Assembly: GCA_964521915.1 (NCBI GenBank)
Contig: CAZFTP010000002.1
Coordinates: 159,675 to 223,674 of the forward strand
From: an uncultured Candidatus Marinamargulisbacteria bacterium
GTDB taxonomy: Bacteria; Margulisbacteria; Marinamargulisbacteria; CAZFTP01
Length of the DNA stretch: 64,000 nt
Reading direction: 5' to 3'
Positions within the stretch are counted from its first letter, which is position 1; the number at the start of each line of letters is the position of its first letter. Both the position numbers and the translations under genes were made by a program. The notes under the pieces were generated by a model. The model was given only the letters and a program-made list of their open reading frames with translations, had not been told where the DNA came from and ran no database searches. Shown here piece after piece: positions 17,900 through 60,338 of the stretch.

Positions 17900-18739
17900 T
17901 CAAACGTTGATAGTTTCACCTGAGCAACTTTTGAAAGAAATAATCTGTTTATAAAGCTCAAAAAAATCTTCAAGGTTTAATTTTTCCCCTCTAATATCCG
18001 GATTTTTTTGGAAAAAATCAATTTTTTTAAAATCCGGATTTAATTTTAAGTAAGGGCTTTTTTCTAAACAATTAACTAAGGTTTTTCTTCTGGCCCAAAA
18101 AGCAGAACGAACTAAAGCAAAGAATTTTTCTTCATTAATTTTGTATTTTTGATTTATCGGCACTAATTCTAGGAAGCAAGAATCAACTTGTGGTTTGGGG
18201 AAAAAGCATTCTTTTTTTACTTCAAATAGTTTTTTGGTTTGGAAATAATAATTTGTATATACAGTAAGTGAAGTGTAGTTTTCAGTTCCTGGTAACGCTG
18301 TAATTTTTTGAGCAAATTCTTTCTGTACTAAAAAAATTAAAGAAGTAAATTTTTTGGGATAATTAATAAATTTTTTAATAATTTTGGTAGAAATATAATA
18401 GGGAATATTGGCAATAACTCTTATTTTTTTTTCAGGTAGCTGATCAAGATCAAATTTTAGAAAATCTTTTTCGAAATAAATGATATTGGTAAAATCAGAA
18501 AGACTTTGTTTTAGATTTGTCAGAAGTTCAGCATCAATCTCAACCGCATAGATTTTTTTTGCTAGGGGGGCTAATTTTTTGGTTAGAAAACCAGTGCCAG
18601 GCCCAATCTCTAAAATAATATCAGATTTTTTTAGATTTATAGATTTTACAAGTTTTTCAATAATGTTTTGGTCAAATAAAAAATTTTGGCCAAGAGATTT
18701 TTTAGGCTTGAGTTTATTTTTGTTGTTTTCTAGAGGCAT
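17900..18739 (-). CDS. rsmA: 16S rRNA (adenine1518/1519-N6)-dimethyltransferase
   Basis: SLGQNFL, EIGPGTG, NIPYYIST. Confidence 0.9.
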   Translation of the reverse strand: MPLENNKNKLKPKKSLGQNFLFDQNIIEKLVKSINLKKSDIILEIGPGTGFLTKKLAPLAKKIYAVEIDAELLTNLKQSLSDFTNIIYFEKDFLKFDLDQLPEKKIRVIANIPYYISTKIIKKFINYPKKFTSLIFLVQKEFAQKITALPGTENYTSLTVYTNYYFQTKKLFEVKKECFFPKPQVDSCFLELVPINQKYKINEEKFFALVRSAFWARRKTLVNCLEKSPYLKLNPDFKKIDFFQKNPDIRGEKLNLEDFFELYKQIISFKSCSGETINV

Positions 18740-19809
18740 TTTAAAGCGAGTTTAACAGCGTTTGCAAAAGATTTAAAGGAGCTTTCTTTTTCATAGGCTC
18801 TATCAAAAGCAGTTCCGTGATCTGGTGATGTGCGAATAAAGGGTAAGCCTAAAGAAATATTAACTGCGCTATCAAAAGCTAGTAGTTTTATAGGTATTAG
18901 TGCTTGGTCATGGTAAAGTGAGATAACAAAATCAAACTCTCCTTGAATAGCTCTAAAATAAACCGTATCTGGCGGTAATGGCCCAATAATGTTTTGATTT
19001 AATTTTTTTAAAAGGGGTATAATTATATCTTGTTCTTCATTTCCAAATAAGCCGTTTTCTCCGGCATGTGGGTTTAAGCCGGCAATGGCAATTTTTGGGT
19101 TTTTAATTTTAAGTAATTTGGCAAAAAGCAGAGTGTTTTCTATAGCCGAATTTAAGCTATCTGTTGTTATAAGCTTAGGTATTTCTTTCAAAGGTTTATG
19201 AATAGTCACTAAAACAGTCTTTAATTTTTTTGTCCAAAAGCCCATATTTACAGTTTTAGCTTTAGTTTTGTCTTTTAAGTAAGAAGTATGATCATGATAT
19301 TTTAGCCCAGCTAATTGCCAAGATTCTTTGCAAATTGGGGCAGTTACCAGAGCATCAGCTTCGCCGTTTTTAATTGCATCAATAGCTTTTTCCAGATACT
19401 GAAAGCTAGCCAAACCGTTTTCAGCTGAGGGTTTTTTGGTAATGAAGTTTTTTGAGAGTGGGGAACAATCAAAAAAAATGATTTTGTTTTTTACGGAGCT
19501 TTGATTACCCCTCACCCCTACTTCGTAGACCCTCTCCCATAATTGGGAGAGGGTTTTGTTGAAATAGTTCACTGTATCTCCCCCTCGCCCGATTGCGGGA
19601 GAGGGGGTAGGGGGGTGAGGGTTAAAGCTCAAGCAAAATAAAGATTTTAAATGAGAATGTTCCAACACCTGTTTTGATCCAAAAACCATGGGTATAAAAG
19701 GTAATTCTTTATTGGTAAGTAAAAGATGATTCAAATACCGAAAAACAATTTCCGGTCCAATTCCACCTGGGTCTCCTAAAGTAATAGCAATGGTAGGTTT
19801 TTTTTGCAT
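18730..19809 (-). CDS. pdxA: 4-hydroxythreonine-4-phosphate dehydrogenase, carrying a 39-aa in-frame repeat-derived insertion
   Basis: GDPGGIGPEI, GLNPHAGENG, SPDHGTAFD. Insert NPHPPTPSPAIGRGGDTVNYFNKTLSQLWERVYEVGVRG is encoded by the GC-rich palindromic element. Confidence 0.9.
   Translation of the reverse strand: MQKKPTIAITLGDPGGIGPEIVFRYLNHLLLTNKELPFIPMVFGSKQVLEHSHLKSLFCLSFNPHPPTPSPAIGRGGDTVNYFNKTLSQLWERVYEVGVRGNQSSVKNKIIFFDCSPLSKNFITKKPSAENGLASFQYLEKAIDAIKNGEADALVTAPICKESWQLAGLKYHDHTSYLKDKTKAKTVNMGFWTKKLKTVLVTIHKPLKEIPKLITTDSLNSAIENTLLFAKLLKIKNPKIAIAGLNPHAGENGLFGNEEQDIIIPLLKKLNQNIIGPLPPDTVYFRAIQGEFDFVISLYHDQALIPIKLLAFDSAVNISLGLPFIRTSPDHGTAFDRAYEKESSFKSFANAVKLALKCL
19505..19622. repeat. 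GC-rich nested palindromic element inside the pdxA reading frame
   Basis: Outer inverted repeat cccctcaccccta (19508-19520) / taggggggtgaggg (19608-19621). Inner hairpins ccctctcccataattgggagaggg (19530-19553) and ctccccctcgcccgattgcgggagaggggg (19578-19607). A partial copy lies at 42398-42436. Confidence 0.9.
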
Positions 19810-19840
19810 CGTTTTAATTAAAATGTATTTAATGTTTTTT

Positions 19841-19942
19841 CTTCCAAAATATAGGTCGAGGATTTTGAGAACGCCGTAAGGGGGCCCACGGGGGGATGGG
19901 TGGAGGCGTTCACAAAATTCTCGGGTCCCTGTATTTTGGAAG
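19841..19942. repeat. ~100-nt imperfect long stem-loop (35-38 nt arms, GC-rich loop)
   Basis: Left arm cttccaaaatataggtcgaggattttgagaacgcc pairs with right arm ggcgttcacaaaattctcgggtccctgtattttggaag. A half-copy lies at 42506-42535. Confidence 0.85.
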
Positions 19943-20306: not shown

Positions 20307-20354
20307 GTGGATATTGTAGAAACTTTTTGGCTAAAGTGCAATTATTTTAATTTT

Positions 20355-20432
20355 GTACCTTACATTTTTTGCGGAGCAAAAAATGTAAGGTACATAATAC
20401 CATACTTGATGGAGTTCTGCTCCATCAAGTAT
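20355..20432. repeat. Two adjacent perfect hairpins in the hisE/pdxJ divergent region
   Basis: gtaccttacatttttt-gcggagc-aaaaaatgtaaggtac (20355-20393) and atacttgatggag-ttctg-ctccatcaagtat (20402-20432). Confidence 0.9.
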
Positions 20433-20442
20433 ACTAGAACAC

Positions 20443-35589: not shown

Positions 35590-35712
35590 GGCAAAAGGCA
35601 CTAGGCACTAGTGGGGCTCAGAGGAAAAAGAGCCCCTGGGGGTTTTTAAGGGGCTTGCCCCCTTAAAGAATTTTTTTTCGTATACCCGTGAAGCGAAGCT
35701 TCAGGGGTATAC
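35590..35712. repeat. Mosaic GC-rich repeat cluster upstream of rnhB
   Basis: ggcaaaaggcactaggcactag; hairpins ggggctc..gagcccc (35613-35636) and ttaaggggcttgcccccttaa (35646-35666); TATAC-type hairpin gtataccc-gtgaagcgaagcttcag-gggtatac (35680-35712). Homologous to 4641-4700. Confidence 0.85.
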
Positions 35713-42352: not shown

Positions 42353-42547
42353 AAAGGCAAGAAGGCACAAGGTTTAGCTCTAAGGCTCGAACTCAAACCC
42401 TCACCCCAACCCTCCTCTCACACGAATGGGAGAGGGCGTTTTTTGAAAAAAGACAAGAGTTTACCCTTACTTAGTGCAGAAATAAAATAAAAAATGAGTT
42501 TTCCCCCAAAAGATAGGTCGGAGATTTTAAGCCCGCCCGGCAGGGAT
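42353..42547. repeat. Mosaic GC-rich repeat cluster
   Basis: aaggcaagaaggcacaaggtttagctc (as at 4641); ccctcaccccaaccctcctctcacacgaatgggagaggg (partial copy of the pdxA element, followed by a T-run); ccaaaagataggtcggagattttaagcccgcccggcaggg (half of the 19841 stem-loop, and related to 60191-60212). Confidence 0.85.
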
Positions 42548-42604: not shown

Positions 42605-42994
42605 ATGTACGAAGAAATAGCTAAGAAATGGTATAAACAGGCTAATCATGACTTATTAATGGCGGAAAAAAATTTAGAAATTGAAGGATATGATGTTAGT
42701 GCATTTTTAACACAACAAGCAATAGAAAAATTTTTAAAAACAATTTATTTATTAAGAAATAAAAAAATACCAAGAACGCATTATTTAGATGATTTAATTA
42801 GAGAGTTAAATTTATCTGATGAAATTTTAGATTTAGCAAATGATTTAACGGCAGATTATACATTAGCAAGATATCCTGATATTTCTGATTTAACACCTTA
42901 TGAAGAATATAATGAAGAAATAGCGTTAGAAAAATTAAATATAGCAAAACAAATTTATGATAAAATAAGTGCTGAATTTAAAGGTTTAAAATGA
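42605..42994 (+). CDS. HEPN-domain protein (HepT-like toxin candidate)
   Basis: QQAIEKFLKTIYLLRNKKIPRTHYLDDL (HEPN Rx4-6H region). Overlaps the downstream MNT gene by 4 nt. Confidence 0.75.
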   Translation: MYEEIAKKWYKQANHDLLMAEKNLEIEGYDVSAFLTQQAIEKFLKTIYLLRNKKIPRTHYLDDLIRELNLSDEILDLANDLTADYTLARYPDISDLTPYEEYNEEIALEKLNIAKQIYDKISAEFKGLK

Positions 42995-43317
42995 ATAATA
43001 ATTTTAAGGATAAAGTAATTAATCAATTTATTAAAGAAGTAATCCCAATTCTTAAAAAAGAGATAAAGCCTGAGGAGATATTATTTTTTGGGTCAAGAGT
43101 TACTGGTGAAGCAAAAGAAGAATCAGATTTAGATGTAATTTTAATTTCAGAATATTTTAAGAATATACCATTTATTAAACGTATGCCACTCGTATTAAAA
43201 AAAATAAAATTCAATAAGCATGTTGATATTTTATGTTATTCTCAAGATGAATTTGAACGTATTAAAAAAACATCTTCTATTATAGAAAATGCATTGATTT
43301 TTGCAAAACAATACTAA
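42991..43317 (+). CDS. Minimal nucleotidyltransferase (MntA-like antitoxin candidate)
   Basis: GSRVTGEAKEESDLDVILI. Confidence 0.8.
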   Translation: MNNNFKDKVINQFIKEVIPILKKEIKPEEILFFGSRVTGEAKEESDLDVILISEYFKNIPFIKRMPLVLKKIKFNKHVDILCYSQDEFERIKKTSSIIENALIFAKQY

Positions 43318-59990: not shown

Positions 59991-60338
59991 GGGGGCTTAG
60001 GAGCCAGAAGACAGGAGTCAGGAGACAGAAAAAAAAATCTCTTGGGGTGTAGGGGCGAAGCCCCGCCAGGGTTTAAGGGACGGAGTCCCTTAAAAATGAT
60101 CTTTTTTTGTGCCCCTTTTTTTGCGAAGCAAAAAAAGGGGCACATAAAAAACTAGCGCCGCAGGCAAAAAAACAGAATGTTAAGATGAAGCCTTAAAGCC
60201 CGCCCGGCAGGGCAAAACAATTTCTCTCGTATACCCAGGTGGCTCTGCCACCTGGGTATACACCGGATTTTTAAGGCTCTGCCTTAACGCCACGCCGGCA
60301 GGCGAAAACGGGGTTCAAGGGGACGAAGTCCCCTTGAA
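59991..60338. repeat. Dense cluster of GC-rich hairpin repeats in the metG/rbp divergent region
   Basis: Hairpins at 60052-60064 (ggggcgaagcccc), 60073-60093, 60109-60143 (gtgcccc-T7-gcgaagc-A7-ggggcac), 60229-60261 (gtatacccaggtgg-ctctg-ccacctgggtatac), 60271-60287 and 60314-60338. Confidence 0.9.

Follow-up and report, generated by a model that had tools for sequence, protein, structure and literature searches.

An in-frame inverted doublet of BoxC/PIT/TM_ECO-type repeat units in a Margulisbacteria-like pdxA gene

The closest described relative of the element reported here is a short repeat known under several names: BoxC, PIT element, TM_ECO (an 'intrastrand triplex motif') and, as HPG1/HPG2, a G-quadruplex-hairpin switch (Holder 2015, PMC4666352; Kaplan 2016, PMC5100583), with Bergler 1992 and Hoyne 2000 cited in PMC4666352 for the earlier descriptions of BoxC/PIT. 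The consensus of the motif is given as CCCTCNCCC N3-6 GGGNGAGGG N3 GGGNGAGGG, and its published density is one per 33-200 kb (PMC4666352). Escherichia coli K-12 contains 23 motifs, all of them described as intergenic and including five inverted pairs; the isolated motif strand forms a triplex in vitro, for which an in vivo footprint was not found, and in E. coli the motif is tied to instability of the surrounding genome (PMC4666352). Here we analyse a window (that is, the whole stretch of DNA under study) of 64,000 nucleotides from an uncultured Candidatus Marinamargulisbacteria bacterium (assembly GCA_964521915.1, contig CAZFTP010000002.1, positions 159,675 to 223,674), in which the pdxA gene contains a GC-rich palindromic insert of 117 bp (19505..19622). 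Judged by its sequence blocks, this insert is an inverted doublet of the BoxC/PIT/TM_ECO repeat family. The explanation that we favour, with a probability of about three in four, is that this lineage acquired one BoxC-type doublet by copying into a permissive loop of pdxA, where it would be translated as a disordered loop without a role in the enzyme and be held in frame by selection.

Identity and anatomy of the pdxA insert

The gene that carries the insert (18730..19809, minus strand; 359 aa) was identified from the list of open reading frames (ORFs) and from matches of its product to Pfam PdxA (PF04166; E = 2e-91) and to solved PdxA structures in the PDB (E down to 1e-59). The window as a whole has a GC content of 29%. 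Within pdxA the insert reaches 56% GC against 34% for the remainder of the gene, and it is translated without a stop as NPHPPTPSPAIGRGGDTVNYFNKTLSQLWERVYEVGVRG, a run of 39 codons (N63-G101). A first-pass annotation had described just such a GC-rich, stop-free 39-aa segment in an otherwise AT-rich pdxA, and this description holds; the hairpins, the outer repeat and the open frame that it listed were all recovered at their positions.

The insert is composed of two units of about 45 bp in opposite orientation, each laid out as CCCTCACCCC-linker-CCCTCNCCC-loop-GGGAGAGGG. Unit A lies on the plus strand (19509-19553) and unit B on the minus strand (19621-19580), with an AT-rich spacer of 24-28 nt between them, and because the two units face each other across this spacer the whole element folds as a long branched palindrome. 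Computed with Watson-Crick pairing only, the RNA fold of the insert reaches -75.6 kcal/mol against -42.9 +/- 4.0 kcal/mol for shuffled sequences (z = -8.2; 0 of 200 shuffles equal), and the DNA fold is similarly extreme (z = -8.8, with no shuffle as stable). The hairpin pattern CCCTCNCCC-N3-8-GGGNGAGGG matches the window twice, the number expected from 100 shuffles being 0.00.

Unit A begins with a C-rich 'third-strand' block, CCCTCACCCC (19509..19518, plus strand), which is the conserved block of the family and was also picked out by inverted-repeat analysis. It is followed by the linker TACTTCGTAG (19519..19528, plus strand) and then by the hairpin ACCCTCTCCCA-TAAT-TGGGAGAGGGT and TTTTGTTG (19529..19554, plus strand), in which an 11-bp stem is 100% complementary. 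The hairpin of unit B, CCCCCTCGCCCG-ATTG-CGGGAGAGGGGG (19580..19607, minus strand), has a 12-bp stem of 92% complementarity and matches the hairpin pattern, while the third-strand block of this unit (19610..19621, minus strand), which reads GGGGGGTGAGGG on the plus strand, forms an outer stem with 19509-19518. The outer inverted repeat (19505-19518 / 19612-19625) had been treated in the first-pass annotation as a feature in its own right, but it is merely the opposed third-strand blocks CCCTCACCCC / GGGGTGAGGG of the two units. Likewise, what had been called a 'nested palindrome' of an unclassified 118-bp kind is instead an inverted pair of known BoxC/PIT/TM_ECO units.

The folds extend the outer stem beyond the units by a further inverted repeat, with GAGCTTTGA as its left arm (19496..19504) and TTAAAGCTC as its right arm (19622..19630). 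The 5' flanks are alike in all three copies in the window (three copies only: units A and B and a solitary unit described below), and if the 9-nt outer arms belong to the element, it may measure 135 bp, or 45 codons, rather than 117 bp. The trinucleotide TTA, which might be taken for a target-site duplication, stands on either side of a 114-bp core, although 3 nt in an AT-rich gene can arise by chance, and the flanks of doublets in other genomes tend to lengthen the palindrome and are not direct repeats.

Set against the published consensus, unit B carries its three 9-nt blocks on the plus strand (CCCTCGCCC, GGGAGAGGG and GGGTGAGGG, at 19582, 19597 and 19613), and unit A carries three exact 9-nt blocks on the minus strand, the complements of 19545, 19530 and 19509. 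Counted from one 9-nt block to the next, the first loop of either unit is 6 nt long (4 nt with the stems extended), within the consensus range of 3-6. The gap between the 10-nt block and the 9-nt hairpin arm of unit A, at 11 nt, is unusually long for the family, the equivalent linker being mostly 2-4 nt and seldom above 8 nt in 277 units of other genomes; a long linker on one side is also found in doublets that flank DUF559 genes (see below). As located by the unit pattern, units A and B stand on opposite strands, 28 nt apart, in the manner of an inverted pair. The solitary copy at 42398 keeps to the intergenic location of the family, and the pdxA doublet, which lies inside a coding sequence (CDS), does not.

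We scanned 185,579 species-representative genomes for the unit pattern CCCTCACCCC-N0-14-CCCTCNCCC-N3-8-GGGNGAGGG. It is present in at least 120 genome contigs with unrelated flanks, and the matches listed include Alpha-, Beta-, Gamma- and Deltaproteobacteria, Chloroflexota, Planctomycetota, Acidobacteriota, Verrucomicrobiota, Armatimonadota, Bipolaricaulota and others. In IMG/VR the pattern occurs in at least 120 viral contigs (L125-L244) as well, which differs from a statement based on E. coli that is taken up below, and these viral copies offer a route between phyla. In E. coli itself, BLAST places the unit in 5,400 of 5,426 genomes, at a median of 14 places. With its GC content of 29%, the window lies below all 241 other motif loci among the matches listed, for which the minimum is 36%.

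Several other identities for the segment were tried and rejected. A native, lineage-specific loop was discarded, given that the blocks are identical to those of a cross-phylum repeat. A search for an Rfam family returned tRNAs only at the gathering threshold, and at E <= 1 on the region it gave sub-threshold microRNA hairpin matches, which are generic palindromes. An intron, an intein or a translational bypass was set aside as well, the segment being in frame, stop-free and devoid of splicing or intein domains.

Doublets of similar build recur in other genomes. Among the fetched loci, pairs of units within 250 bp of each other comprise 33 convergent pairs (14 with one common hairpin), 16 divergent pairs and 14 direct pairs. 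Six convergent pairs with spacers of 10-29 nt and a total length of 85-98 bp (L038, L101, L233, L230, L019 and L091) align with the window element over its full length and share its asymmetry, one linker being short and the opposite one longer; this alignment of the full architecture with doublets of other phyla supports the reading of the entire insert as a convergent doublet. The AT-rich spacer that lies between its two hairpins (19555..19579), and encodes DTVNYFNK, probably belongs to the element and not to pdxA. The first 14 nt of this spacer are similar to the tail of the solitary copy (TTTTGTTGAAATAG vs TTTTTTGAAAAAAG), and in L251 the two doublets beside one DUF559 gene have a common spacer.

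The spacer would instead be native pdxA sequence if two single units, 24 bp from each other and oppositely oriented, had entered the same loop in separate events. Its host-like composition is compatible with such a history, as is the existence of single units (42398-42436) and the observation that doublet spacers differ between genomes and track host GC; moreover, the loop without both units would measure 21 aa, close to the 25 aa of the nearest relatives. This last argument is weak, however, because the PdxA loop ranges from about 6 to more than 80 aa. The recurrence in unrelated genomes of convergent doublets with 10-29 nt spacers and with one short and one long linker, the same spacer in both of the L251 doublets and the likeness of the spacer start to the tail of the solitary copy all speak for a ready-made doublet, and we regard two separate insertions as unlikely.

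Copies in frame within genes recur as well. Open-frame analysis, followed by Pfam, found in-frame units with Pfam domains on both sides: a divergent doublet in a Bordetella mfd gene (L007), a unit that splits the adenylation domain of ligA in a member of the Planctomycetota (L064), and units in a ygiQ-type radical SAM gene (L103) and in a PMT_2 glycosyltransferase gene (L105). In two betaproteobacterial metG genes (L005:2-2161, plus strand; L017:1777-4515, minus strand) units bracket an in-frame DUF559 domain, which is inserted after the anticodon-binding region and ahead of the C-terminal tRNA-binding domain within one continuous ORF. Because in-frame copies exist in other genomes, the rule that the repeat is always intergenic probably reflects E. 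coli, and in-frame intragenic insertion is apparently a wider, undescribed behaviour of a described family. A repeat first noticed in the 1990s, and described as strictly intergenic, is met here in frame inside essential genes of several phyla, and the range of the motif now includes a very AT-rich candidate phylum and viral contigs.

The receiving loop, the relatives and the rest of the window

The insert lies in a loop of PdxA whose length ranges between about 6 and 30 aa across the alignment, and exceeds 80 aa when inserts of other lineages are included. The window protein retains all of the invariant residues of the PdxA family, the catalytic ones among them. An AlphaFold2 model of this protein, built from 96 sequences, has a mean predicted local distance difference test score (pLDDT) of 88.4, with values above 90 in the core, low values at residues ~61-105 and values below 50 at residues 70-93, coinciding with N63-G101; Foldseek gives a TM-score of 0.87 (normalised by target length) between the model and E. 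coli PdxA. The alignment, the residue check and the model agree with the proposal of the first-pass annotation that the insert occupies a loop of variable length and leaves the conserved PdxA residues in frame. The pdxA gene with its insert is probably functional, and for annotation the odd 39 residues of PdxA are a repeat-derived loop and not a new domain. Three proteins of another lineage (P0084, P0101 and P0109) carry different inserts of 50-90 aa in the same loop; these include a tandemly repeated PFENPDEGNSAIGTGIQRA segment, and another DNA repeat is their probable source.

The nearest homologues come from metagenome-assembled genomes of Margulisiibacteriota, namely P0002 (334 aa) and P0003 (330 aa), both at 63% identity, and P0004 at 77%. 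In the alignment the insert is absent from P0002, from P0003 and from the translated L003 locus, and the DNA of L001 and L003 across the site is ordinary AT-rich sequence. No such units and no non-coding GC islands were found in 58 kb of DNA from these relatives (L001-L003, L338 and L339). With the closest PdxA relatives (63-77% identity) and this DNA lacking units, the insertion is lineage-specific, as had been supposed at first pass. At L003:1-242 a peculiarity was noted: P0004 is annotated as a 251-aa protein without an N-terminus, and the DNA upstream of it encodes part of the native loop, yet the first ~40 codons of pdxA are missing or rearranged in L003, as might result from truncation of the gene or from a chimera in the contig.

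A third unit is found in the window, 23 kb from pdxA on the same contig. This solitary and degenerate unit, CCCTCACCCC-AA-CCCTCCTCTCA-CACGA-ATGGGAGAGGG with a T-rich tail (42398..42452, plus strand), is intergenic and lies upstream of a HEPN/nucleotidyltransferase gene pair. It had been noticed before (42398-42436) as a partial copy of the 118-bp element; the copy is real and intergenic, but it is one degenerate single unit and not a fragment of the doublet. The accompanying claim that the insert is a dispersed repeat, and not native to pdxA, is upheld. When the element, each unit and the solitary copy were compared with the 64-kb window by BLAST with short words, no further copies emerged.

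Under the explanation that we favour, the doublet would have been copied into pdxA as a selfish or passively spread element, arriving presumably in a single event. Three circumstances may have allowed it to persist: the insert, at 117 bp (or 114 bp with a possible TTA duplication), is divisible by three, its core is stop-free in two of three sense frames, and the site is a variable-length, presumably surface-exposed loop at which PdxA appears to tolerate large insertions. Since two of three sense frames and none of the three antisense frames are open across the 114-bp core, about one in three insertions of the element would be tolerated, and the observed copy would be in frame because of selection on a needed gene. 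The insert would then be retained in both mRNA and protein, as a loop of some 39-45 residues that is probably disordered and has no catalytic role.

The very stable predicted structure could also be taken to mean that the insert is a functional structured element which regulates a pdxA-ksgA operon, through pausing or attenuation, antisense termination, an RNase III site or a recombination/mutation hotspot, and which acts via a hairpin, a G-quadruplex or a triplex. The hairpin of unit A together with TTTTGTTG has a terminator-like score on the strand antisense to pdxA, four G-tracts can be counted on the G-rich strands, as is also true of the published G-quadruplex/hairpin switch (PMC5100583), and in E. 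coli motifs of this type have been linked to instability of the genome around them (PMC4666352). We nevertheless consider regulation quite improbable, in that the relatives do without the insert, copies elsewhere stand beside unrelated genes and in unrelated flanks, published tests found neither promoter or terminator activity nor an in vivo triplex footprint (PMC4666352), and a strong hairpin in the middle of the CDS of a needed gene is more likely to be a cost than a benefit.

A further alternative, to which we give very little credence, is that the GC-rich segment is chimeric and arose as an artefact of assembly or amplification. The assembly is of the metagenome type, and the allele is a singleton among 5.8 billion proteins for which an exact look-up returned no second record. 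The pdxA sequence is nonetheless collinear on both flanks of a segment that is a multiple of three in length, stop-free and matched over its full length by a real repeat family, a unit of which is also present 23 kb away on the same contig; in addition, the same locus has received a second lineage-specific palindromic insertion, in the spacer between hisE and pdxA.

The 3' end of pdxA overlaps the start of the downstream ksgA/rsmA gene (RrnaAD) by 10 nt; a hisE-type PRA-PH gene lies upstream, and pdxJ is close by. The hisE-pdxA spacer (19838-19942) is occupied by another palindrome, of a different kind, which measures about 105 nt and is GC-rich in its middle; its RNA fold reaches -43.6 kcal/mol (z = -8.5), and in the relative L001 the corresponding gap is just ~10 nt. 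A leader, AAGATAGGTCGGAGATTTTAAG, with a GC hairpin at 42497-42545 is related to this element. The HEPN/nucleotidyltransferase gene pair (42605-43317), just upstream of which the solitary unit lies, resembles a toxin-antitoxin module. Short GC-rich intergenic hairpins of another type occur at 35613-35662, 60037-60090, 60184-60213 and 60273-60335, their sequences being TTAAGGGG-loop-CCCCTTAA and TTAAAGCCCGCCCGGCAGGGC. Because the sampled relatives are without any of these, the lineage of the window has seemingly been invaded by several kinds of GC-rich hairpin repeat. Two AT-rich perfect palindromes (20354-20396 and 60108-60146) have a common core, TTTTTTGCGRAGCAAAAAA, with variable stems and may represent a third small repeat family, and further intergenic palindromes lie at 20401-20433 and 60228-60262.

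DUF559 nuclease genes flanked by units

The DUF559 domain that is bracketed by units in metG leads to a wider association. A tblastn search with this domain gave seven matches in unit-pattern loci, and all seven abut units. The DUF559 loci considered comprise L005, L014, L017, L043, L124, L167/L250, L189/L251, L246, L247 and L258-L337, and they include an Acinetobacter locus of 36% GC (L014) in which the DUF559 gene abuts units. The original E. coli BoxC, beside fabI, adjoins ycjD, which is itself a DUF559 gene, single-copy and present in 3378 of 5426 E. coli genomes. In four of 13 viral loci that were selected by DUF559, full convergent doublets or unit pairs stand on either flank of the gene.

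The association extends to a metagenomic sample made up of the best 80 DUF559 loci, 51 of which have a unit hairpin within 300 bp. Where both flanks were available (67 of the 80 loci), the hairpin is present on both sides in 35, on one side in 11 and on neither in 21; in a stretch of 600 bp the expectation of such a hairpin by chance is far below 1%, to judge by the window shuffles, in which none arose, and by the published density. The commonest layout, found in 17 of 26 loci inspected, is hairpin-GGGGTGAGGG, then 20-100 nt, the DUF559 ORF and CCCTCACCCC-hairpin, and the flanked ORF encodes about 110-115 aa. The putative catalytic positions of DUF559 (D45, E56, D58 and H62 in alignment A4) are invariant, and the domain has been placed in one group with Vsr and 3r3p, the structure of a homing endonuclease from a group I intron (PMC3424549). 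A search of the literature library for DUF559 or ycjD together with BoxC found no paper.

We favour DUF559 as the candidate mobiliser because units typically stand on both sides of genes of this subfamily, much as REP sequences surround RAYT genes. Copying in trans, initiated by a DUF559 nuclease (Vsr-fold PD-(D/E)XK), would be the most likely route of mobilisation, at odds that we put well short of even, and the DUF559 gene could equally home into pre-existing doublets instead of mobilising them. More broadly, and as a tentative proposal, BoxC/PIT/TM units may be the ends or the preferred targets of miniature selfish elements that cross phyla and have a DUF559 nuclease as their cognate enzyme. 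These would constitute a second system of the REPIN/RAYT type, whose doublets colonise CDSs in frame, sometimes together with the nuclease domain, as in metG. If this is true, such elements would have added 'PSP...GEG' peptide loops to PdxA, Mfd, LigA and MetG. The tight association with DUF559, including ycjD at the original BoxC, would be the part of most interest to specialists, and it makes the question of spread and maintenance testable on E. coli YcjD.

A number of points weigh against the interpretation offered here, both of the insert itself and of its spread. The second loops of unit B (7 nt) and unit A (12 nt) lie outside the strict published N3. The window PdxA forms a singleton cluster from one contig in a collection of 5.8 billion proteins, such that the allele is represented by a single sequence. 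There are just three units per 64 kb, their loops all differ, and there is no hint of a recent burst. In published tests the motifs were without promoter, terminator or in vivo triplex activity, and the E. coli motifs are reported to be without association with mobile elements (phage, plasmid or transposon; PMC4666352). As for DUF559, tblastn found no DUF559 gene within the 64-kb window, and the third-strand blocks of the pdxA doublet are on the outside, whereas the commonest DUF559 layout has them on the inside. Because repeat-associated members made up the query alignment for DUF559, the sample of the 80 best loci is skewed towards that subfamily.

Comparison with known systems

The insert shares with BoxC/PIT/TM_ECO the three 9-nt blocks CCCTCNCCC, GGGNGAGGG and GGGNGAGGG, the length of the first loop, the frequent occurrence of close inverted pairs and a dispersed distribution in which flanks are not conserved. 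It departs from the described E. coli copies in several respects. Those are described as always intergenic, whereas the window doublet is in frame inside a CDS; its second loops are 7 and 12 nt long as opposed to 3; its host is Margulisbacteria-like with a GC content of 29%; and its third-strand blocks are on the outside of the pair, with two separate hairpins.

In its behaviour within a gene the insert is most readily compared to the Rickettsia palindromic elements (RPEs), reportedly described by Ogata et al. 2000 and not known outside Rickettsia. Both are palindromic repeats of about 100-150 bp that stand in frame in a housekeeping gene and contribute a peptide at a permissive site while the protein is preserved. 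With 39 codons, no stop and a PdxA core that is predicted to be intact in a confident model, the pdxA insert resembles an in-frame RPE in this respect. RPEs are not, however, built from BoxC blocks, and here three units are visible as opposed to dozens. The RPE-like behaviour invoked at first pass is therefore a fair analogy as regards tolerance in frame, but membership of the RPE family does not follow, the sequence being fully explained by BoxC blocks.

The REPINs and their RAYT transposases, reportedly treated by Nunvar 2010, Bertels & Rainey 2011 and Ton-Hoang 2012, are alike in having a short palindromic unit and, as the putative replicative form, two inverted units joined by a spacer and able to fold into a long hairpin. 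A further likeness is the small gene flanked by inverted units (ycjD being single-copy in E. coli, the one species checked). The flanked gene encodes a DUF559 protein (PF04480) as opposed to a Y1 (IS200/IS605-like) transposase, no search having been aimed at Y1, and on this ground a strict RAYT-type explanation was rejected. The unit sequence is also unrelated to REP, REPINs are extragenic, and mobilisation by DUF559 is putative.

Miniature inverted-repeat transposable elements (MITEs) have terminal inverted repeats, and these are present here (19505-18 / 19612-25, extended by 19496-504 / 19622-30); no classical transposase was found as a parent, the sole associated gene being that for the DUF559 nuclease. 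ERIC/IRU and the enterobacterial MITEs, which are said to have been found intragenically (Delihas 2007/2008), are likewise small structured repeats that are occasionally tolerated and read through in ORFs, but they belong to other sequence families and have other host ranges. Both the repeat family and in-frame palindromic repeats as such are already known, and what is new is their combination, together with the Margulisbacteria-like host of 29% GC and the long-linker variant of the doublet.

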